Assembly (NCBI GenBank): GCA_039801725.1
Contig: JBDRVE010000004.1
Location: 6,992 to 70,991, forward strand
Length of the DNA: 64,000 nucleotides
Origin: a candidate division WOR-3 bacterium
GTDB taxonomy: Bacteria; Hydrothermota; Tepidihabitantia; Tepidihabitantales; DTDR01
Direction: 5' to 3'
A program made the position numbers and the translations under genes. The notes under the pieces are model-generated. The model saw only the letters and a list, made by a program, of their open reading frames with translations, did not search any database and was not told where the DNA came from. Positions 3,375 to 17,130 of this stretch are shown here, piece after piece; the stretch's first letter is position 1; every line of letters begins with the position of its first letter.

Positions 3375-4661
3375 TTAGGGATAAATTCTATCAATCATTC
3401 GAGGAAATGGTATCGCTTCTCTCACATGTTTAATTTTGCATATCCAAGCGACTGTTCTTTCAATTCCCAAACCAAATCCCGAATGAACAAAACTACCGTA
3501 TCTCCTTAAGTCTAAATACCATTCAAAAGGCTCTCTTGGTAGATTATATTCTATTAATCTTTTTTCCAATTCTTTTAAATCATCCTCTCTTTGACCGCCA
3601 CCGACAATTTCCCCATATCCTTCGGGTGCTAAAATATCAACAGAAAGCGAAATTTCTGGATTTTCTTTCAATCTTTTCATATAAAAGGCTTTGCATTTGG
3701 CCGGATAATGATAAATTATCAAAGGTTTATCATAAAGATTTGAGAGAAAAGTCTCCTCGTCGCCACCAAAATCATCTCCCCAATTTATTTTAAAACCACC
3801 TTCTTGTAATTTTTTTATCGCTTCATCATAAGTGATTCGAGGAAAAGGTTTTTTGATATTCAACAACGAATTTATATCTCTTTCTAAAATCTCCAATTCT
3901 TTTTTTCTTCTTTCTAATACTCTCTCCACAATATACACTATCATTTCTTCTGCTAAATCAACAATATCGAAAAGTTCCATAAAACTTGCTTCAGGCTCAA
4001 CCATCCAGAATTCAGTCAAATGCCTTCGTGTTTTTGATTTCTCTGCCCGGAAGGCAGGACCAAAGCAATAAACTTTTCCTAAGGCAGCTGCCGCTGCCTC
4101 ATTATAAAGTTGACCACTCTGAGAAAGATAAGCCTTTCTATCAAAATAATTAACCTCAAAGAGAGTGGTAGTACCTTCACAAGAAGTAGGGGTCAAAATT
4201 GGAGCATCAACTAAAATAAATCCTCGATTATCTAAAAAATCACGACAGGCTTTAATTATCTCTGCCCTGATTCTCAGGATAGCAAACTGTTTTCGCGAAC
4301 GAATCCAAAGGTGTCGGTGTTGCAAAAGAAAATCAATGCCGTGTTCTTTTTTAGTGATTGGATAATTTTCTGAAGAACTCAAAAGTTTTAATTCCTTGCC
4401 AATAATCTCAAAACCTCCTGGTGCTCGAGAATCTTTACGCACAATACCTTTAAGTTCTACTAAAGATTCCTGTGTAACTTTATCAGCCAGCTCGAAAGAT
4501 TCTTCATCTACTTCATTAGCAGAAAAAACTACTTGAATTATACCTGTACCATCTCGAACTAACACAAATCTCACTTTGCCCGAAGATCTTTTGTTATAAA
4601 CCCAACCTTTTAAAATAACTTCTTTCCCCTCATAATCACTGATATTTTCTATCCAAATCAT
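3375..4661 (-). CDS. asnS: Asparaginyl-tRNA synthetase.
   Basis: 428 aa. N-terminal OB fold, class II motifs and [21 protein letters not shown] (AsnRS-type, not the FRDE of AspRS). Convergent with rdgB with a 1-nt gap. Confidence 0.85.
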
Positions 4662-5173
4662 AATTTATATTTTATCTCTCGTAAAAATTTCTTTCTTTTC
4701 TCAATATCTTCTTCTTTTTCTATGCCTTTAGGAGCAAAACCATCAATCACACCTAAAATCCCACGACCTTCACCATCGTCAGCAATAATTACTTTTAAAG
4801 GATTAGCCGTTGCTGCATAAATAGAACATACTTCACACACTTGCTTTATACCATTTAGGATATTAATTGGATAAGCATCTCTCAGAAAAATAATAAATGA
4901 ATGACCAGCACCAATATTTAAGGCATTCTCAATTGCTAAACTTTTTAAATCTTCATCGTTTCCTTCACTTCGTACTAAACATGGACCGGAAGATTCACAA
5001 AAAGCAAGACCAAATTTGGCATGGGGGTTTGTCGCCACAATTACTTCGTATAAATCTTCCACCGTTTTAATAAAATGACTTTGTCCCAAAATTACATTTA
5101 CATCGGCTGGTTTTTTAATTTCAACTATTTTTATTTCCATACTTTCCCTCCTTAACTCTTTACTTGTTGACAA
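4658..5173 (-). CDS. Conserved hypothetical protein, possibly of the adenosine-specific-kinase (PF04008-like) family.
   Basis: 171-aa ORF whose stop overlaps the asnS start (ATGA). Globular, with conserved-looking GxGHSF and [10 protein letters not shown] segments. Family assignment is tentative and from memory. Confidence 0.35.
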
Positions 5174-5195
5174 ATCTTCAAATTTTTGGTATATT
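5167..5195 (+). promoter_or_regulatory. Sigma70-type promoter for the grpE-dnaK operon.
   Basis: TTGACA (5167-5172), 17-nt spacer, TATATT (5190-5195), about 28 nt upstream of the grpE ATG. No CIRCE/HrcA inverted repeat seen. Confidence 0.45.
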
Positions 5196-5222
5196 ATAAT
5201 AAATTAGATAGTAAAAGTCAAG

Positions 5223-5690
5223 ATGGAAAAGAAAAAGGTAGGGCCGGTTAGTTTACTAAAAGATAGTTATCTTCGTCTTTTAGCTGAATTTGATAACTTT
5301 CGAAAAAGAAAAGAGCGAGAAGTACTTATGGCTAAAGAACTTAGTTTAAAGGAGTTCTTTATCGATATTATCCCCGTTTTAGAGAATTTCAATCGGGCTT
5401 TATTTCACTCTCAATTAAATAATAGTTTTCAAAGTTTGAAAAGGGGATTAGAAATAATTTATAATCAGTTAAAAGGAGTATTAGAAAAATACGGATTAAA
5501 AGAATATTCTTTATTAGAAAAGGATTTTGATCCCAAATATGCTGAAGCCGTGGGATATGTAGAAACCGACAAAATACCGCCTAATAAAATAATAGAAGAG
5601 GTTAGCAAGGGATATTTATACAAAGATTATGTGTTAAAACCAGCTCAAGTGATTGTTAGTAAAGAAAAACAAAATCCTTCAGAAGAATAA
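5223..5690 (+). CDS. grpE: Nucleotide exchange factor GrpE.
   Basis: [17 protein letters not shown] GrpE signature. Immediately upstream of dnaK. Confidence 0.85.
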
Positions 5691-5728: not shown

Positions 5729-7591
5729 ATGGGAAAAAGAGTAATCGGGATAGATTTGGGAACTACTTTTTCTGTCGTGGCAGTAATGGAAAAAGGTCAA
5801 CCAATAGTTATTCCTAATCCCGAGGGAGAAAGAACAACTCCATCAGTAGTGGCTTTTGGTAAAGAAAGATTGGTCGGAACTCTTGCTAAAAGACAGGCAA
5901 TAATAAATCCGGACAAAACAATTTATTCTATTAAGCGGTTTATGGGACGAAAATATTCCGAAGTGACTGAAGAAATAAAATTAGTTCCTTATAAGGTAGT
6001 ACCTGCTGATAATGGAGATGCCTGGGTAGAAGTAGAAGGAAAAAGGTATTCCCCTCCGCAGATTTCAGCAATGATCTTAGAATATTTAAAAAATGCTGCT
6101 GAACAATATTTGGGTGAAAAAATTGATAAGGCAGTAATTACCGTACCAGCCTATTTTAACGATGCCCAAAGGCAAGCTACTAAGGATGCTGGAAAAATTG
6201 CTGGGTTAGAAGTATTAAGAATTATTAACGAACCAACTGCGGCTGCTCTAGCCTATGGATTAGATAAAAAGAAAAACGAAAAAATTGCGGTTTATGATTT
6301 AGGTGGAGGTACTTTCGATATTTCTATTTTAGAAATAGGCGAAGGAGTATTTGAAGTAATCGCTACCAATGGTAACACTCATTTGGGTGGCGACGACTTT
6401 GATGCCCGAATTGTTGAATGGATTTTAGAAGAAGCAAAAAGAGAATTCAAAGTGGATCTTTCCAAAGATCGGACTGCTTTACAAAGGATTAGAGAAGCAG
6501 CAGAAAAAGCTAAAAGAGAACTTTCTACCAAATATGAAACTCTAATAAGCTTACCTTTTATCTATTCCGATCCTGAAAAAGGACCAATTCATCTAGAATT
6601 AAAGTTAACACGAGCTCGTTTAGAGGCAATGGTGGAAGATTTGATTCAAAAAACGTTAGAACCTGTAAGAAATTGTCTAGCCGATGCGAAATTGAGACCG
6701 GAAGATATTGATGAAGTTATCTTAGTGGGAGGGCAAACAAGAATGCCAAGAGTTCAAGAAGTCGTAAGAGATTTCTTTGGTAAAGAACCCCATAAAGGAA
6801 TCAATCCTGACGAGGTAGTTGCTATTGGTGCCGCTATTCAAGGAGCGGTGCTTGCTGGTGAAATCAAAGACATTGTTCTTTTAGACGTAACTCCTTTATC
6901 TTTGGGCATCGAAACGTTAGGGGGTGTTTTTACTAAAATTATCGAAAGAAACACAACTATTCCTGTAAGAAAAAGCCAAATATTTACTACCGCCGAAGAT
7001 AACCAAACAGCAGTTACTATTCATGTGTTACAAGGAGAAAGACCAATGGCTGCGGATAATAAAAGTTTAGGAAAGTTTGAACTTCATGGTATCCCTCCGG
7101 CTCCTCGTGGAGTACCCCAAATTGAGGTTATCTTCGATATCGATGCTGACGGAATCTTACACGTGACTGCTCGAGATTTAGCCACTAAAAAAGAACAAAG
7201 TATGAGAATTATCCCTTCTTCCGGTCTTACCAAAGAAGAGATCGAAAGAATGATCAAGGAAGCAGAAATGTATCGCGAAGAAGATCGTAAGAAAAAGGAA
7301 TTGGTAGAAACTAGAAATAAGGCTGATACGCTAGCTTATACAATCGAAAAAAATCTAAAAGAGTTTGGTGATAAAATCTCAGAAAGTGATAGGAGGGAAA
7401 TTGAGGAAAAATTAAATCGATTAAAGGAGGTGATGAAAGGAGATAACAAAGAAGAAATTGAACGAGCAATTGATGAATTGCAGAGGGCAAGTCATCGTTT
7501 AGCAGAAGCCATGTATCAGCGAACACAAAGTCAAAAAGAAGAAAAAGATAAAAAAGATTATGAAGTTTATGATGAAGATAGTAAATCTTAA
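5729..7591 (+). CDS. dnaK: Molecular chaperone DnaK (Hsp70).
   Basis: [18 protein letters not shown] and VGGQTRMP Hsp70 signatures. 620 aa. GGAGG ribosome-binding site. Confidence 0.97.
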
Positions 7592-7603
7592 AAAGGAGAA
7601 ACT

Positions 7604-8053
7604 ATGGTAAGTAATTTAGATGGAAAACTTGAAAAAATACTTAAATCTTTAACAAAAAGAGAAGAAGAAGTTATTAGATTACGTTACGGTTTAGGCGGCG
7701 AAATCCCTCATACTTTACAAGCAATCGGTAACAAACTTAATATCACCCGTGAACGGGTAAGACAAATTGAAGAGCGAATTCTAAGGAGATTTGGAAGCAA
7801 AGAGTTGATCGCTGCTCTTAAAGAACTAAAAAAACCATTGATGCGCGGACGTATTAAGTACTTCACTATTCAAAATAAACTAAAAAAATACGGCGATATT
7901 TTAGCAGCAAAAGAAAGAAAACAGATCGAAACCAAGCTGGAAAAATTGAAAAAAGCGCTGATTAAAAAAGATAAGAAACTAATTAATACCGCAATAAAAG
8001 AATTAGAAGAAGCCGCCAAACCATTATTAAAGGCTAAAAGGGTAAAGGTTTAG
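7604..8053 (+). CDS. Small protein made of a sigma-70 region-4 (HTH) domain plus a Lys-rich tail. Paralogous to the RpoD C-terminus.
   Basis: [54 protein letters not shown] aligns nearly residue-for-residue with RpoD region 4.2 at 13896..15485 ([57 protein letters not shown]). GGAGA ribosome-binding site. Located between dnaK and dnaJ. Confidence 0.6.
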   Translation: MVSNLDGKLEKILKSLTKREEEVIRLRYGLGGEIPHTLQAIGNKLNITRERVRQIEERILRRFGSKELIAALKELKKPLMRGRIKYFTIQNKLKKYGDILAAKERKQIETKLEKLKKALIKKDKKLINTAIKELEEAAKPLLKAKRVKV

Positions 8054-8121: not shown

Positions 8122-9270
8122 ATGGAAAAAACTAAAAAGGATTACTATGAAATTTTAGGTGTCTCCCGTAATGCTACAAAAGAAGAAATTAAACAGGCTT
8201 ACCGACGCCTGGCTAAAAAATATCATCCTGATATGAACCCTCATAATCGGAAGGAAGCAGAGGAAAAATTTAAAGAGATTTCCGAGGCCTATGAAGTTTT
8301 GATGGATGACGAAAAAAGAAAATTGTATGATCTGTACGGTCACGAAGGATTGTCTCAAAAATTTGGTCCGAGTGGCTTTACTTGGGAACATTTTACTCAC
8401 GCTGATGAATGGCGGGATATTTTCGGCAGCAGTTTTGATCCCTTTGATTTTCTTCGAAGATTTTTTGAAGAGGAAACGATTTTTGATTTTTGGGAACCGA
8501 AAACCAAAGAAAGAAAAAGAAAACCGGTCGGCGGAAATATAAGGGTAAAGATGAAATTAACATTAGAAGACATTGCCGAGGGTAGAGAAAAAACTTTTGA
8601 ATTAGAGCGGTATGAAAAGTGTCCTGATTGTGAAGGAATCGGAGGTAAAGGTAAAACTACATGTTCTGTTTGTAAAGGTAAAGGAGAAATTCAACAAATT
8701 CAAAGAACCGCTTTTAGTCAAATAATCAAAATTACTACTTGCCCTCATTGCGGTGGTAATGGCAAGGTAGTAAAAGAATTGTGCAAAACTTGCGGAGGAA
8801 GCGGACGAATTAAAAAGAAAAAAATATTTAAGATCAAGATTCCTCAAGAAATTACGGATAAAAACCATTTAATTCTCAAAGGCGAAGGACATTATGGCGA
8901 AGGAGGCAAAGGAGATATAATTATTGAGTTTGAAGAACTTCCCCATCCTCTTTTTTTAAGACAAGGAACGGATTTAATGGTCGAAGTCCCTATTCATTAT
9001 ACCACCGCTTTAATAGGTGGTGAGATTGAAGTACCTACTTTAGAGGGTAATAAAAAAATTAAGATTAGTCCTGGTGTCCGAGACGGACAAATAATTAGAA
9101 TTAAGGGATTAGGATTAAAAGGTCAAAATATTAGCGGTGATTTATTAGTGAAAATCAAAATTTTCTTCCCTACCCGACTCTCGGAAGAAGAAAAGAGATT
9201 ACTGGAAGAACTAAAAAAAATATCCTTAGAATCGCCTCCTAAACCTTATCGACCACAAGAGACTAAATGA
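8122..9270 (+). CDS. dnaJ: Chaperone DnaJ.
   Basis: J-domain DYYEILGV...KKYHPDMNP and four CxxCxGxG zinc-finger repeats. 382 aa. Confidence 0.9.
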
Positions 9271-10024: not shown

Positions 10025-10216
10025 ATGACCAAGATTGAAGTAAGAGACGGCGAACCTTTTGAAAGCTTTATTCGTCGTTTCCGTCGGGCAGTAGAAAAAG
10101 CTGGGATTTTACAAGACATCAAAAGAAAAGAATATTATGAAAAGCCCAGCGAACGAAGAAAGAAACGCCTGGCGGAAGCAATTAGAAGATGGCGCAAAAA
10201 GATGCAACAAATGTAA
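10025..10216 (+). CDS. rpsU: 30S ribosomal protein S21.
   Basis: MTKIEVRDGEPFESFIRRFRRAVEKAGILQDIKRKEYYEKPSERRK matches the S21 consensus. GGGGG ribosome-binding site. Confidence 0.85.
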   Translation: MTKIEVRDGEPFESFIRRFRRAVEKAGILQDIKRKEYYEKPSERRKKRLAEAIRRWRKKMQQM

Positions 10217-10217
10217 A

Positions 10218-12254
10218 GTGATTTGCGATAAAGATACTCTTCATAATTTAGAATATCAGAAGGTTCTTAATTTAATTGCCGAATACTGTGAAACTTCTAT
10301 GGGGAGAGAACTGACTTTAAATCTTTCGCCTTTTTCAGAAATAGAAATAATCAAAAGAGAATTTTGTCATTTAGAATATTATCTTTCTTTAAAAGAAAAA
10401 CCTTCTTATAAACATTTTTTTAATCTGGCAGATTTTTTAAATGAAAAATTAAAAAAAGAACATTATTTTGATGGAAAAACTTTAGTTTTAATTAAAAATT
10501 TTTTAAAAGATGTAGAAAAACTGAAAAAGTATTTTCCCTTTAAAAATGCTCCTTTATCCTTTTCTTTTTATCTTAACAATTTAAAGGACTATCAACAATT
10601 AATTTCTTTAATTGAAGAAAAAATTGATGAAAATGGAGAAATCAAATATGAAGCTTCTCCAAAATTTTCCGAAATCTTTGAAGAAATAAAAAATTTACGA
10701 GAAAAAATTGTTAACAAACTAAAGAAAATAATTAAAGAAAAATCAAATTTTTTAACAATTAATAATTATACCTTATCAGGAGAAAGATACGTTTTGCCAA
10801 TAAAGGCTGATTCCATTGGCAAATTTCCCGGAATTATTCACGATTATTCCGAAACCGAAAAAACTGCTTTTTGTGAACCTATAGAAATTGTTGAAGAAAA
10901 TAATTTACTAATAAAAGCTAATTGCCAATTAGAGGAGGAAAAGAAAAAAATTTTAAAAAACCTTACTCAAGAAATAATCAAAATATATTCTGATATTAAG
11001 AAAACTTGTGAAACTATTGCCTATTTAGATTTTTTAAATGCTAAAGCAAAATTTGTTGAGGAGTATCGTTGCCAAAAAGTTGAATTTTCTAATAATTATG
11101 AATTTCAAATAAATGATGCTCGTCATCCACTTTTAGTGAAAATAAAGAAAGAGGTTGTTCCTCTTTCTTTTCAATTACCAGAGAATATAAAAATTCTTTT
11201 AATCTCTGGACCCAATGCTGGTGGTAAAACTGTAGTTTTAAAAACAATTGGCATAATTTCTCTTTTAGCCCAATCAGGAATATTTCCTCCGGTAGGAATA
11301 AATACCAAAATTCCGCTTTTTAAAAAAATTTTTGCGGATATTGGCGACGAACAATCATTAGAAAAAGGCGTCTCTTCATTCCATGCTCATATTACAAAAG
11401 TAAAAAATTTTCTTGAAAAAGCAGATGAAAACTCCTTAATTTTATTGGATGAATTAGGAAGAGATACAGCCCCGGAGGAAGGTGATGCGTTAGCGATGGC
11501 AATATTAGAAGAATTATCCCGAAGAAATGTTTTTGTTTTTGTTACTACTCATTCATTCCGATTGAAAATTTTTGCCCATAATTCATTAAATTTTTTAAAC
11601 GCAGCTATGGAATATAAAGAAAAACCTACTTACCGTCTCATCATCGGAATACCAGGAGAATCTAGCGCTTTAAAAATTGCCCAAACCGTTGGAATAAAAA
11701 AAGAAATTATTGAAAGAGCTAGCCGATATTTAAAATCTGATTTTTTCATATTGAAAACAAAATTAGAAGAATTAAGTAAAAAAAGTGCGGAATATGAACA
11801 AAAAATAAAAGAGTTAAAAAAGAAAGAAGAAAGAGTTGAAGAATTAATTAAAGAATACGAAAGAAAAAATAAGGAATTAGAAATAATTTCTAAAGATTAT
11901 ATTAAAAAATTTTTGAAAGAAAAAGAAAAATTTTTTTTGAATGCTCGCAAAGAAATTGAAAATTTTATAAAAAAAATTAAAATTGAAGAAAAAGAAACAA
12001 TAAAAGAAGCGAAAAAATTTGTTGAAACTAGTTTATCAGAAATTCAAGAGGAAAAGAAGCTTTTTTTATCTCCTTTAGAGGATCAAGAGTTAAAAGTAGG
12101 TACCAAAGTGTATATTGAAAAATTGAAACAAGTTGGTAAAATTATTGAAATTAAAGATAATCTATTAAAAGTTATAGCCGAAAAATTTGTATTCATTGTA
12201 CCTAAAACCGAAATAAAATTGGTAGAGGAAGATGTCCAAAAGAGAGATTGTTGA
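10218..12254 (+). CDS. mutS2: Endonuclease MutS2 (MutS domain III-V ATPase). Apparently lacks the C-terminal Smr domain.
   Basis: Walker A GPNAGGKT and MutS2-like N-terminus (LEYQKVLNLIAEYCETSMGRE). The ORF-track start at 10137 lies inside rpsU. The real start is probably GTG at 10218, 1 nt after the rpsU stop. The protein ends after a KOW-like segment with no Smr. Confidence 0.75.
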   Translation: MICDKDTLHNLEYQKVLNLIAEYCETSMGRELTLNLSPFSEIEIIKREFCHLEYYLSLKEKPSYKHFFNLADFLNEKLKKEHYFDGKTLVLIKNFLKDVEKLKKYFPFKNAPLSFSFYLNNLKDYQQLISLIEEKIDENGEIKYEASPKFSEIFEEIKNLREKIVNKLKKIIKEKSNFLTINNYTLSGERYVLPIKADSIGKFPGIIHDYSETEKTAFCEPIEIVEENNLLIKANCQLEEEKKKILKNLTQEIIKIYSDIKKTCETIAYLDFLNAKAKFVEEYRCQKVEFSNNYEFQINDARHPLLVKIKKEVVPLSFQLPENIKILLISGPNAGGKTVVLKTIGIISLLAQSGIFPPVGINTKIPLFKKIFADIGDEQSLEKGVSSFHAHITKVKNFLEKADENSLILLDELGRDTAPEEGDALAMAILEELSRRNVFVFVTTHSFRLKIFAHNSLNFLNAAMEYKEKPTYRLIIGIPGESSALKIAQTVGIKKEIIERASRYLKSDFFILKTKLEELSKKSAEYEQKIKELKKKEERVEELIKEYERKNKELEIISKDYIKKFLKEKEKFFLNARKEIENFIKKIKIEEKETIKEAKKFVETSLSEIQEEKKLFLSPLEDQELKVGTKVYIEKLKQVGKIIEIKDNLLKVIAEKFVFIVPKTEIKLVEEDVQKRDC

Positions 12255-13899
12255 AAAAATTTTAGAAAATTGTGACATCGTTGAATTAATAAGCTCCTAT
12301 CTTCCTTTAAAGAAAGTTGGGCGATATTATCGAGCATTATGTCCTTTCCATAATGATACTAAACCATCTTTTTATATAAATCCTTCCCAACAATTATTTC
12401 ATTGTTTTGGTTGCAAGGAGAGCGGCAACGTTCTCCATTTTGTGATGAAATATGAAAAAATAGAATTTTCGGAAGCAGTAAAGTTTTTAGCTGAAAAATT
12501 AGGAATAAGTATCTTTGAAGAAGAAAAAAAAGATACGAAACAAAAAGAAATTTACGAAATTCTTAACTTAGCGAGTAATTTTTATCAAGAACAGCTTTTC
12601 ACTCACTCTTTGGCTCTTAATTATGTTATAGAACAAAGAAAGTTATCTTTAGAAACCATCAAAAAATTTCAATTAGGTTATGCTCCTATGGGCAATCTAT
12701 TGATTAGAGTGCTTCAAAAAAAAGGTTATCCAGAAGAATTATTACTCGAAAGTGGAATAGCCTACCGAAAAGAAGGCGAACTCCGCGAATGGTTGTCAAA
12801 CCGTATCGTATTCCCTATTTTTAATCATCAAGGAAGGATTGTAGGTTTTGGGGGTCGGGCATTAGACGAGAAAACTGAACCAAAATACCTTAATTCGCCA
12901 GAAACGTTAATCTTTAAAAAGGGAGAAAATCTTTACGGCCTTTATCAAACTAAAGAATTTTTAACTAAGAATCAACCAATTTTAGTAGAAGGTTATTTTG
13001 ATTTACTATCTCTTTTCGATAAAGGAATTAAAAATTTGGTAGCGCCTTTAGGTACTGGTTTTACAATTGATCAAGCGAGATTATTAAAAAAATATAATGA
13101 AGAAATAATTATTTTATTCGATGGTGATAATGCTGGTCGAGAAGCCACCAAGAGAGCAATTGAAATTTCTTTAAAAACCGGCCTCAATCCCTTGGTGGCT
13201 TTTATTCCCGAAGGTTATGATCCCGATAAGTACATTAATGAAAAAGGATTAGAAGAATTTGAAAAGATAATCAAAAAACCTTATGATTTGATCGATTTTT
13301 ATCTGAAAATCTTAAACCCCCAAACAATTTCCGAAAAAAGAAAAGTTTTAAAACAACTTTTAGAAGTAATAAATTTTACTTGCGATTCGATGCTAAAAGA
13401 GCTATATTTAAATAAAATAAGTGAAATTTTTAATTACAAGAAAGTGGATTTAGGTATTAAAGAAATAAAGAGTACTTTTCTTTTTAAATATGAAGAGATT
13501 TCTAATCTTTTAAGAGATTTAAAAAATCAAATTATAAATGTGTTAATTAATTACCCTCAATATTTATGGATTGTGGAAAACGAATATGCCAAGGAAGATT
13601 TTCCTGAAGAAGTTCAAGAAATTATCAAGATAATTAAAAATTTTAATAACCAAGAAAAAATGTCTATTGGTTTAATCTTTGATGAAATTAAAAATCCAGA
13701 GCTTAAAAAAAGACTCACATTGATTTCCTTCTTACCTCCGGAATTAATCATCGGTATAAAAGAAAAAGATTTTAAAGATTTAGTAAGTAAGTATCTTTAT
13801 CATTATTATTTAGAAAAATGTGCACGGGGAGAAACTGACGAAAGAATTTTGAAAAAAATTTATGAAATTAAAAAAAAATTAATCAAAGGAGAAAAATGA
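12232..13899 (+). CDS. dnaG: DNA primase DnaG.
   Basis: Zinc finger [11 protein letters not shown]...CFGC and a TOPRIM region (EGYFD, DGDNAG). 555 aa. Confidence 0.9.
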
Positions 13900-15485
13900 A
13901 CGCTAGCAAAAACAAAAAGGCTCTTTTAGAAAAATTTTACAATGAAATTTTAAAGTATAAAAATAAAAAATTAACGTACGACCAATTGAATATGCTACTT
14001 CCGGAAGAATTAAATACTGCCGAAGAAGTGGAGGAAATTTTATTAAACCTTAATAAAATGGGTATCGAAATTATCGAAGAGGAAACTCCGGAGATCGCGT
14101 TAAGAAAACCCAAAAAAGTAACTATTGAACCTTTCGAAAGCGCTACTAAATTTTATTTTCGTGATTTATCAAAATTACCTCTCCTAACTAAAGAAGAAGA
14201 AATTAAATATTCAAAAATGATGGAAGAAGGTTATCGGGAAATTACTTTCTATTTATTTAACAGTTTGCCTCTGGTGGAAAGATTAATAGAACTTTGTGAA
14301 TTGGTAGAAAAGGGAGAAAAAGAATTGGAACAAATTGTGCGAGTAGAATATGAATATCTTATCAATCGCCGAGCAATGTCTCACAAAAAACAACAATTTA
14401 TTCGTCGGATAAAAACTTTAAAAAAATTAATTAATGTTCTTAGAGAGCTTTATGAAAAAAAACCTACACCTGCGGTATTAAAGAAAATACAAGAGAAAAA
14501 GAAAAGCATCTTAAGAAGAATTCAAAATTTAAGTTTACAACATTCTGTCATCAATGAATTTGTTGAAGAGTTTCGTCTCAAGATGAATGAAATGGAAACT
14601 GTTATGAATCAATTGAAGGTTACCAAAGATAAAAATGAAATTAAAAATCTTAAAGAAAAGTTAAAAGAATACGAAGATTTTTTTAATCAAAATTATGAAA
14701 AGGTAGTCGAAACATGGCAAAATATTGAAAAGTGTCAAAATAAAATTCTTTTTGCTCGCGATAAAATGATAAATGGCAATGTTCGTTTAGTTGTTTCTAT
14801 TGCTAAAAAATATGCTAATCGCGGTTTAGAATTTTCCGATTTAGTGGAAGAAGGAAATGTAGGTTTAATAAAGGCAGTTGAAAAATTTAATTATAAAAAG
14901 GGATATAAATTTTCTACCTATGCTACCTGGTGGATAAAACAAGCGATTACTCGAGCTTTGGCAGAACAATCTAAAACAGTTAGAATTCCATCTCATATTC
15001 AAGATGCGATTAACAAAATTACTCACGCTCGCCAAAAATTTTTACAAAAATTTGGCCGAGAACCCACGGATAGTGAAATCGCTCAACGATTAGGAATAAG
15101 CAAAGAAAAGATTGAACGATACCAAAAAATTGTTCAGCATGGCGTTTCTTTAGATAAACCAATAGATGACGAAGAATCTGGTTTCATCGGTGACTTTATA
15201 GCAGACGAAAAAACTACTTCTCCAGCAAGAAAAGCTGGTATTTCTCTGTTAAACGAAAAATTAGAAAAAATACTACAAACCTATTTATCAAAAAGAGAAG
15301 AAAAAATTTTAAAACTCCGCTTTGGCATTGGTGACGGTATTCAAAAAACTTTGGAAGAGGTTGGCCAAATCTTTAATATTACGCGTGAAAGAGTGAGACA
15401 GATTGAAGCTAAGGCCTTAAAAAAATTACGCCATCCAGCAATTTTAAAAGAATTTTCTTTTTTGAAAGAACTACTAGAAAAATAA
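13896..15485 (+). CDS. rpoD: RNA polymerase sigma factor RpoD (sigma-70).
   Basis: Region 2 ([27 protein letters not shown]), region 3 and region 4.2 ([21 protein letters not shown]). ATGA overlap with dnaG. Confidence 0.95.
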
Positions 15486-15799: not shown

Positions 15800-17130
15800 T
15801 TTTGGATTATCTTCTGTTTAATTTCTAATTTTGTTATCCTAAAAATCAAAAAATAACAATTAATTAAGTCATTGTTTTTTAGTAAAAATTTTTTAAGAAT
15901 TTTATCTTTAAAATAATTTATCGCTATTCGTGTAATTGGTTAAAACATCGTTACTAGCCATAAAGTGACAATAATCAGGAGCATAATAATCTAAAATAAT
16001 AACCGGAAAAATTAGCAAAATTTTCATTTAGATGAGTTAATCCTAAAGATTTAAGCTTTTCTAATGGAGTTAAATTATTAATACAATAGCCAAAAATGGG
16101 GTCTTTTGGTATTATAATATATCTGCCATTTCTGTGTTTCTTTAAGAAAATGGGAGCAATTTTTAAAAGTTGGTATCAAAGGAATATAAAATTCTTCGTC
16201 ATCGGTTTTATGCGACCTTTCTACCCTTCCTTGATATCCTTTCCTTCCTTTTGGTGCCTTTCCTAAAACAGCACCATAAATTTTATACCGCCTCTCATTA
16301 ATTAATCTCAATTTATGAGGATCATCACCGCCAAATTCCTTACCCCAATCCTCCTGCCAAAATACTTCTTTATCTATTCCCCAACATCTTAGCCACATCA
16401 TTACCAACCCAACAAAAAGAAAGCCGTTCTCCTGATTTAAATTATAACTATTAGGAAATAAATCTAAATCTGGAAATACTTTCACAAAATTTCCATTGGT
16501 ATATTGGTAGTTTAAGAAGAGAAAATATTCGGCATAATTCAGTTCCTAATGTTCCCTTATCCAAAATATCTTTGGTATCTACTTGAACATAGGTAAAAGG
16601 TTTTTTCATTTCATAACTCCAAGATGCTGAATAAAATCTTTTTCTTTCTTTTCTTTTTTCTTTCTCCTATTTTACCCGAAAGACATTTCTTTACTCTCCA
16701 TTCGTTTAAATTAAGTTTCAAAGCAATCCTTTTTTCCCAATTAGTTTTCTTATATAATTCCAGTATTTTCTCTTGGATTTCTTTAGGAATTCTTTTAGGT
16801 GAATTATGTGGCTTTCTTGTGAGTTCTTTAAGACTATCTTCTCCTTTTTCTTTGTATCTTTTTTATCCATTTTCTTAGGGTATTTCAGGAGACTCTGTAT
16901 TTTCTACTGATTTGGCTTATATTTTTACCTTTGTTGTATTCTTCTATCATTTTTACTTTTTACTTTTGTATGGAACCATAGGCGTCCCTTTTTAATTTCT
17001 TTATTTTCTTAATTCTTCTTGGGACGCCTATTATTTTAAGAAACTTATTGAATAATTTCAACACATCTTCTACCTCAATACCCTTATTAACCTGGTAACC
17101 ATGTCTTACCACAATTACTTTTTTGATCAT
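15800..17130 (-). mobile_element. Degenerate insertion sequence (IS481-like). Boundaries are approximate.
   Basis: Non-coding AT-rich flanks surround the transposase pseudogene. Terminal inverted repeats could not be identified by eye. Confidence 0.4.
16078..17120 (-). pseudogene. IS481-family (rve/DDE integrase) transposase, multiply frameshifted or stop-interrupted remnant.
   Basis: On the minus strand: an N-terminal HTH piece (MIKKVIVVRHGYQ..., EEYNKGKNISQISRKYRVS); an RPH-like segment (KELTRKPHNSPKRIPKEIQEKILELYKK) in another frame; and a DDE core (TYVQVDTKDI... then GRVERSHKTDDEEF...YNTKRPH) in two further frames. The plus-strand ORF 16624..16878 is antisense to it and judged spurious. 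Confidence 0.6.

Follow-up and report, generated by a model that had tools for sequence, protein, structure and literature searches.

The window analysed here is a 64,000-nucleotide (nt) stretch of the genome of a candidate division WOR-3 bacterium (contig JBDRVE010000004.1 of assembly GCA_039801725.1), in which the chaperone genes dnaK and dnaJ are separated by a small open reading frame (ORF) that we refer to as X. An ORF of 149 amino acids (aa) is present at 7604–8053 exactly as an earlier note on this DNA had claimed, and its product begins with a free-standing region 4 of a group-1 sigma factor, encoded within a grpE-dnaK-X-dnaJ operon. Sequence comparisons identify X as a chimera of two parents, a complete sigma domain 4 joined to the lid of DnaK. 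Its main features are as follows.

7604–8053, plus strand: X, chimeric ORF of 149 aa (sigma domain 4 followed by a DnaK-lid-like domain), supported by the ORF list, Pfam, synteny and the ratio of nonsynonymous to synonymous substitution rates (dN/dS)
7604–7819, plus strand: sigma-A domain 4 of X, aa 1–72, helices H1–H5, regions 4.1 and 4.2
7745–7789, plus strand: recognition helix of the helix-turn-helix (HTH) of X, aa 48–62, where T48, R49, E50, R51, R53 and Q54 equal sigma70 T583, R584, E585, R586, R588 and Q589
7820–8035, plus strand: strongly basic homologue of the alpha subdomain (lid) of the DnaK substrate-binding domain (SBD), X aa 73–144 corresponding to DnaK 523–594 (alphaB–alphaE), from BLASTP, shuffles, hhalign and AlphaFold2
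7844–7870, plus strand: invariant RGRIKYFTI, X aa 81–89, in an alphaB-like helix, a candidate DnaK-binding pseudo-substrate

The N-terminal half is a sigma domain 4

A search with Pfam Sigma70_r4 (PF04545), which the earlier note had put forward as a check, gave a significant match to X aa 13–62 (E 1.2e-14, 53.9 bits against a 24.1-bit cutoff). This was the sole sigma domain detected with Pfam and NCBIfam, and region 2 was not found with either. The best NCBIfam matches were RpoD models, aligned over just their C-terminal ~60 positions at 66 bits, which does not reach the 555-bit cutoff of the RpoD equivalog. The likeness to the C terminus of the RpoD whose gene lies 6 kb downstream was likewise borne out: X 2–79 and RpoD 449–527 share 36 of 79 residues (46% identity, BLASTP E 6e-17), including the stretches LEKIL, REE, LRxGxG and TL and one of 11 residues, and the alignment scores 165 against 38 ± 5.9 for composition-preserving shuffles (z 21.6). 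The corresponding part of rpoD is:

15240–15476, plus strand: region 4 of the bona fide rpoD (aa 449–527; gene 13896–15485), possible parent of the N-terminal half of X

The product is not, as had been thought, essentially region 4.2; it carries all of region 4, helices H1–H5 (4.1 and 4.2), equivalent to E. coli sigma70 536–613. Residue n of X corresponds to sigma70 residue n+535, so that X starts where domain 4 naturally begins. The six recognition-helix contact residues listed above are invariant in seven of seven family members. In sigma70, the contacts to the -35 element are reportedly (Campbell and co-workers, 2002) R554, R562, L573, E574, T583, R584, E585, R586, R588 and Q589; all of these but E574, which is replaced by Q, are shared with X and do not vary across its family. 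Relative to group-1 sigma factors, TLEEVG is replaced by TLQAIG, L598 by F and R599 by G. Compared with its own RpoD, X retains the hydrophobic face of H5 (L68, I69, L72, L75 and L79), and H5 runs unbroken into the alphaB-like helix.

The only names that databases give X are ‘sigma factor-like HTH DNA-binding protein’, ‘sigma-70 region 4 domain-containing’ and ‘CsgD family’. The last, a JGI name, is a generic automatic label: Pfam gave no GerE-type HTH match (PF00196) to X at E up to 1. HrcA domains were absent from X in the Pfam search, and MerR-type HTH matches were absent in both Pfam and NCBIfam.

The C-terminal half is a diverged DnaK lid

What had been described as a Lys-rich tail is, according to BLASTP, shuffling and hhalign, a folded and diverged homologue of the DnaK lid. 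X 87–144 is 38% identical to residues 537–594 of the product of the adjacent dnaK (BLASTP E 5e-9), and an ungapped local alignment of 72 residues equates X 73–144 with DnaK 523–594 at a score of 112; 2000 shuffles gave 38–41 ± 6 with a maximum of 68 (z ~11.6), even when the comparison was with the similarly K/E-rich lid alone. Alignment of the X family with the C termini of WOR-3 DnaK proteins in hhalign returned a probability of 97.3% and an E-value of 1.9e-11. Single-sequence searches pointed the same way at lower significance: the top 15 phmmer matches of the C-terminal half among all PDB sequences were DnaK, at residues ~544–600 and each weak (E ~0.1), and the Pfam HSP70 profile PF00012 aligned with X at positions 540–595 of 599 with 12.7 bits, under its 20.6-bit cutoff. 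The nucleotide-binding domain (NBD), SBD-beta and alphaA have no counterpart in X, which also lacks the acidic C-terminal tail of DnaK.

X keeps the hydrophobic core positions of the lid and the (Y/F)GD turn, and KKPLxRGRIKYFTI is invariant throughout the X family. The lid-derived part contains 27 K+R versus 10 D+E (net +17), whereas its DnaK counterpart contains 16 versus 19 (net -3). The alignments of X with its two putative parents overlap at KEL (X 73–75), a tripeptide that occurs in both RpoD (…FLKELLEK-stop) and DnaK (…KKKELVETR) and may mark the recombination junction. In the AlphaFold2 model of X, with a predicted local distance difference test (pLDDT) of 74 and a predicted template modelling score (pTM) of 0.58, short helices span residues 3–15, 18–28, 38–45 and 49–62, and beyond them come a 34-residue helix (66–99) and helices at 102–121, 124–137 and 139–143. 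The model thus predicts, with moderate confidence, a sigma-4 fold followed by a long alphaB-like helix and a helical bundle.

X is a conserved gene of the chaperone operon

X lies in the order grpE-dnaK-X-dnaJ, and Pfam supports the identities of all three neighbours.

5223–5690, plus strand: grpE, first gene of the operon (Pfam GrpE, E 5e-41)
5729–7591, plus strand: dnaK, 620 aa (Pfam), codons 523–594 of which (nt 7295–7510) are the putative parent of the C-terminal half of X
7593–7598, plus strand: Shine-Dalgarno sequence AAGGAG of X, within the 12-nt dnaK-X spacer, kept in six species
8122–9270, plus strand: dnaJ (Pfam), 3′ of X past a 68-nt, AT-rich, poorly conserved spacer that holds no terminator

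The in-group used for comparison consists of six species-level genomes (the window and loci L001–L005) together with two further contigs (L049 and L050). Its members share 81–93% identity in X and a constant context, in which asnS and a minus-strand adenosine-kinase-like gene are followed by grpE-dnaK-X-dnaJ-rsmE-rpsU-mutS2-dnaG-rpoD-dciA, so that the dnaK-X-dnaJ arrangement of the window, which the earlier note had suggested looking for in related genomes, recurs identically in all seven other loci. Pairwise dN/dS, at saturated synonymous divergence (dS above 1), is 0.057 for the whole of X, 0.026 for its N-terminal half and 0.13 for its C-terminal half; the values for dnaK, grpE, dnaJ and rsmE are 0.024, 0.034, 0.082 and 0.137, respectively. 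X is a real gene, and both of its halves are under purifying selection.

Because X is in the frame of dnaK and a single TAA plus 12 nt away from it (…DSKS-stop-KGETMVSN…, window 7589–7606, in six species), it might be taken for the mis-split end of dnaK, the start of dnaJ or a decaying fragment. We consider this explanation effectively refuted: the stop codon of dnaK, the 12-nt spacer with AAGGAG and the ATG of X are kept in six species, DnaK and DnaJ are complete, the end of the one and the start of the other matching those of out-group orthologues that have no X between them, the dN/dS of 0.057 is not that of a pseudogene, and a two-domain fold is predicted. Separately, the in-frame layout could reflect the route by which the gene was born, or could permit rare read-through to a DnaK-X fusion.

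Neither terminator-like sites nor conserved promoters were found in the stretch from dnaK to dnaJ, and X is almost certainly co-expressed with grpE, dnaK and dnaJ as one operon. Strong Shine-Dalgarno sequences precede X, dnaK, rpoD and rpsU, and are lacking at grpE, dnaJ, rsmE and dnaG. Because its translation signal is as strong as those of dnaK, rpoD and rpsU, X is probably made in amounts comparable to DnaK. The in-group DnaJ (window 8122–9270) is itself unusual in that the linker following its J-domain, instead of being a typical Gly/Phe region, has a high content of F, D, E and W; NCBI names it ‘DnaJ C-terminal domain-containing protein’, and the out-group proteins are named DnaJ.

These properties bear on two alternative explanations. 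X might be a general nucleoid or nucleic-acid-binding protein, unrelated to sigma function or heat shock, for which the operon is simply a relic of its birthplace. A net charge of ~+22 (41 K+R versus 19 D+E), probably high translation and an AT-rich genome (31% GC) would fit such a role; we nevertheless judge it improbable, in that the strongest constraint falls on residues of sequence-specific recognition and that the gene sits at the same place in all genomes seen, at a synonymous divergence that is saturated. X might, instead, be an accessory factor of the DnaK-DnaJ-GrpE machine, comparable to Thermus DafA or E. coli CbpM, with the sigma-4 fold as a mere scaffold or DNA tether. Its location between dnaK and dnaJ, its probable translational coupling to dnaK and the derivation of its C-terminal half from DnaK are in keeping with this idea, as is the precedent of CbpM, a J-protein regulator whose fold is like that of a transcription factor (PMC4063869). 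A scaffold role, however, leaves the perfect conservation of the base-contacting residues unexplained, the +17 charge disfavours binding to the basic helix II of the J-domain, and sister lineages operate the same chaperone system without X; we therefore regard an accessory factor as quite unlikely. DafA and CbpM families were not among the Pfam and NCBIfam scan matches of X, a result that does not extend to their reference sequences, which were not compared.

A third explanation would have X act on proteins rather than on DNA, as a sigma-4 decoy at the beta-flap tip of RNA polymerase (RNAP), as a sponge for anti-sigma or activator proteins, or as a domain 4 supplied in trans to a truncated sigma factor. 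Sigma-4 contacts to the beta-flap tip are located in H1, H2 and H5 (PMC2988021), and X keeps these surfaces in full, including L72, which corresponds to sigma70 L607; moreover, its N-terminal half is extremely conserved (dN/dS 0.026) and begins at the natural domain boundary. On the other hand, the DNA-contacting residues, which a pure decoy would not need, are conserved just as strictly, and the continuation of H5 directly into the predicted 34-residue helix and bundle may produce a clash at the flap. A partner sigma factor without region 4 was not seen in the window, and domain 4 on its own is a weak competitor of the one tethered in the holoenzyme. On balance, action on proteins seems unlikely.

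Distribution and origin of X

Among 5.8 billion clustered proteins, full-length matches to X were confined to seven clusters at 90% identity, which are 81–100% identical to X, and all remaining matches were to region 4 of ordinary sigma factors; the C-terminal half as sole query recovered the same seven clusters and nothing else. An exhaustive search of 1.84 billion representatives with a hidden Markov model (HMM) of X yielded one full-length cluster at 50% identity (295 bits), the second-best match being a protein of multiple region-4 repeats (156 bits). A scan of viral contigs found no relatives, and literature searches on sigma-4-only regulators, sigma/DnaK fusions and heat-shock control in WOR-3 found nothing relevant. 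To judge from these searches, the domain architecture of X is found nowhere else.

In three of the nearest out-group WOR-3 genomes, the cluster grpE-dnaK-dnaJ-rsmE-(rpsU)-mutS2-dnaG-rpoD is present without X, and 25–78 nt separate dnaK from dnaJ. DnaJ identity is 81–100% in the X-bearing genomes and then falls to 59% or less. The gene is therefore an insertion confined to a single genus-level clade of uncultured WOR-3 bacteria, and both candidate parents, rpoD and dnaK, reside within the same gene cluster. Because the out-group state, with dnaJ directly following dnaK, is preserved, the steps of neofunctionalisation, such as the inversion of lid charge and the loss of the TLEE motif, should be traceable.

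The parentage itself can be narrowed in part. For the lid, DnaK proteins of in-group and out-group WOR-3 score 112–115 against X and E. coli DnaK scores 73, and a WOR-3 origin of this part is therefore likely. The proposal that X is a partial duplicate of the local rpoD could not be demonstrated: its region 4 is no closer to its own RpoD (score 165) than to other group-1 sigma factors (up to 194). Third-codon-position identity between X and its putative parents is 45% for region 4 and 29% for the lid, near random; hence the founding event appears to be an old one, and local duplication of the ends of rpoD and dnaK is plausible but unproven.

Promoter and regulatory context

Expression of the operon may start from a putative promoter that faces a second promoter-like site on the opposite strand.

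5167–5195, plus strand: putative operon promoter, TTGACA (5167–5172)-17 nt-TATATT (5190–5195) with a TGn extended -10, an 11/12 consensus match present at all six in-group loci
5193–5221, minus strand: TTGACT-17-TATAAT, an opposing promoter-like site of the divergent adenosine-kinase-like gene, conserved in six species

Both sites fall in the 82-nt control region between the ATG of the adenosine-kinase-like gene (5140) and grpE. This ATG is not the start of the listed 171-aa ORF at 4658–5173 (minus strand), which begins at a TTG and over-extends; homologues and a GGAGGG Shine-Dalgarno sequence indicate the start at 5140, giving a product of 160 aa in the PF04008 adenosine-specific kinase family. 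The two facing promoters (5140–5223), both near-consensus, have overlapping -10 boxes, each with its -35 downstream of the start site of the other, so that binding of RNAP at the two should be mutually exclusive. The three out-group grpE promoters share TTGACAAA and are without TGn. Their -10-like box lies within a few bases of the annotated ATG or overlaps it (L052 3500–3550, L053 3470–3515, L054 3320–3360), which suggests that out-group grpE mRNAs are leaderless or that their starts are mis-called.

Known heat-shock operators were not apparent. The controlling inverted repeat of chaperone expression (CIRCE, TTAGCACTC-N9-GAGTGCTAA) was absent from the window and the related in-group and out-group loci with up to 3–4 mismatches allowed, as was the HspR-associated inverted repeat (HAIR, CTTGAGT-N7-ACTCAAG) from the window and 10 related loci with up to 2 mismatches; inverted repeats in three intergenic spacers were limited to short AT-rich matches. 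Eight of the 22 copies of TTGACA in the window are intergenic, though intergenic DNA makes up 10% of the sequence, a distribution indicating that the organism uses canonical TTGACA -35 elements. About 10 candidate promoters of the form TTGAC(A/T)-N16-18-TAnnnT precede window genes, two of which, including that of grpE, have TGn. Among 20 further ORFs of the window, Pfam revealed no other heat-shock gene that could have offered a promoter for comparison.

This arrangement is relevant to the possibility that X is an operon-specific autorepressor, an analogue of HspR that occupies the -35 of the grpE-dnaK-X-dnaJ promoter and perhaps of a few other heat-shock promoters, with DnaK as co-repressor through the lid-derived domain, such that titration of DnaK by heat would bring about derepression. 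A DNA-binding protein inside a dnaK operon is the classic HspR/HrcA layout (PMC8223512), the control region has one conserved -35-like hexamer on each strand (TTGACA at 5167, TTGACT at 5221), a near-consensus promoter would plausibly need repression, and no other known control is evident in that CIRCE and HAIR were not found. Yet the recognition helix of X is that of sigma-A, so that other TTGACA promoters would not be distinguishable from this one, and an extended operator specific to the in-group was not found. In addition, the strong Shine-Dalgarno sequence points to abundance and not to the low copy number of a dedicated repressor, and the TGn extended -10 makes occlusion of the -35 less effective. 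Autorepression is thus a candidate that we think will probably prove wrong.

A possible mechanism

X is probably a stress-linked transcription regulator of a new type. We tentatively favor, at less than even confidence, a model in which it is a mimic of sigma domain 4 that binds TTGACA-type -35 elements, is made together with DnaK and may have its activity gated by DnaK via the lid-derived segment. X should recognise the targets of sigma-A domain 4, because its sigma-4 half is the most constrained part and has the same base-contacting residues; it would bind TTGACA-type -35 hexamers and possibly also other sigma-4 partners, e.g. the beta-flap tip. Because it has no region 2, X cannot initiate transcription, which leaves it the part of a competitor or mimic, one that would damp -35-dependent promoters in proportion to the expression of the chaperone operon. 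The conservation of residues would fit the competition for -35 elements or beta-flap contacts that the earlier note had put forward. The operon's own promoter would be comparatively resistant to X. It may escape because promoters with TGn/-10 can dispense with the contact between sigma-4 and the -35 element (PMC2988021).

The lid-derived domain, being strongly basic, would add non-specific DNA affinity to X, and capture of its RGRIKYFTI alphaB segment by the substrate cleft of DnaK could tie the activity of X to the availability of free DnaK. When the lid of Hsp70 is destabilised, the alphaB segment around a conserved Leu enters the SBD-beta cleft (PMC7294093). RGRIKYFTI aligns with the DnaK alphaB segment that holds this Leu, and is made up of hydrophobic residues with basic flanks. 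Hydrophobic residues flanked by basic ones are reportedly the classic DnaK-binding pattern (Rudiger and co-workers, 1997), and the segment is a candidate contact site for DnaK. The outcome would be a chaperone-titration feedback of the same logic as HspR/DnaK or sigma32/DnaK; HspR is an operon-encoded DNA-binding regulator for which DnaK is the co-repressor (PMC8223512). In its most extended form, the model depicts X as a chaperone-titrated sigma-4 decoy, born from the 3′ ends of rpoD and dnaK, that would occupy -35 elements or the beta-flap when free DnaK is scarce or the operon is induced. Transcription would thereby move globally away from -35-dependent housekeeping promoters and towards extended -10 promoters, that of the chaperone operon among them, in what would be a new type of heat-shock circuit; this full version is improbable, and we offer it as speculation.

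Several considerations weigh against the sigma-4 mimic model. Isolated sigma-4 binds DNA weakly, and competition with holoenzyme would therefore need high levels of X. No operator beyond ordinary -35 hexamers was identified. The change from TLEEVG to TLQAIG alters two acidic residues that nearly all group-1 sigma factors have; together with the replacement of R599 by G, it means that the specificity or the partners of X may differ from those of sigma-A. The correlation of TGn with X rests on a single evolutionary event, and binding of DnaK to the lid-derived segment is purely conjectural. The extension of H5 into a long helix might, for steric reasons, change how X binds the flap or DNA. Finally, the scores of the AlphaFold2 model (pLDDT 74, pTM 0.58) are only moderate.

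Other features of the window

Two further loci differ between genomes. A fragment of an rve_3 integrase core (window 16078–16485, minus strand) occupies a 1.4-kb gap between dciA and the gene for a T2SSE ATPase; the spacing of these two genes is ~85 nt in L050, and the fragment is therefore an insertion sequence remnant peculiar to the window genome. In the X-bearing clade, MutS2 (~673 aa; window ~10230–12254, L049 3514–5535, L050 10635–12656) has MutS domain V and no Smr nuclease domain. Smr is kept in the out-group MutS2 at two of three loci (L052 8106–10418 and L054 8083–10470; 770–795 aa), the gene in L053 being truncated where the locus ends. In the window, the ORF listed for mutS2, 10137–12254, over-extends across rpsU.

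Comparison with known systems

Whatever X does, it provides a clean natural case of gene birth by the fusion of fragments of two housekeeping genes, and it offers a ready-made minimal sigma-4 module for work on -35 recognition and flap binding. If the mechanism proposed above is correct, X would be a transcription regulator that mimics a sigma-factor domain and is encoded by the cell rather than by a phage; we know of no earlier cellular example, although no systematic search was made. It would also constitute a fourth independent way of controlling the heat-shock response by chaperone feedback, in addition to sigma32/DnaK, HspR/DnaK and HrcA/GroEL.

With domain 4 of the group-1 sigma factors (RpoD/SigA), X has in common the fold and length (H1–H5), ~46–50% identity, identical -35-contacting residues in the recognition helix and the hydrophobic face of H5. 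It differs in lacking regions 1–3, and with them core binding by region 2 and DNA opening, and in the continuation of H5 into DnaK-derived helices. Its relationship to the DnaK/Hsp70 lid is one of colinear, ungapped homology over 72 residues, with a long helix and a three-helix bundle predicted in X, whereas its charge is inverted (from -3 to +17) and the NBD, SBD-beta, alphaA and the acidic C-terminal tail are missing.

HspR, a MerR-family protein of actinobacterial and Helicobacter dnaK operons, resembles X as a small DNA-binding protein within a dnaK operon, and in both a C-terminal part may mediate dependence on DnaK (PMC8223512). Unlike HspR, X has a sigma-4 HTH and not one of the MerR type, has no HAIR repeat, and has a generic -35 hexamer as its predicted target. 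Phage T4 AsiA and Rsd would share with X the predicted outcome, a selective loss of -35-dependent transcription that spares TGn/-10 promoters (PMC2988021). They bind and remodel sigma-4, however, whereas X would be a copy of sigma-4 that competes for its ligands, and there is no relationship of sequence or fold; neither these two proteins nor T4 gp33 gave fold matches among the top PDB matches of X.

YlxM-like HTH proteins and free-standing or tandem Sigma70_r4 proteins from metagenomes (P0133, P0148 and P0205; P0121), all of them uncharacterised, likewise have a sigma-4 HTH but no other part of sigma; in contrast to X, they carry no DnaK-lid domain, and no member was found to be encoded in a dnaK operon. 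Some metagenome proteins are made solely of region-4 repeats, either as tandem pairs of ~155–180 aa or, in P0121 (938 aa), as at least nine copies. By the defining features present in its sequence, X belongs to none of the sigma-factor, Hsp70, HspR/MerR, HrcA and LuxR/CsgD families. Whether grouped with the operon-encoded stress regulators or with the free-standing sigma-4 HTH proteins, it would be a member of unprecedented composition and mode of origin.

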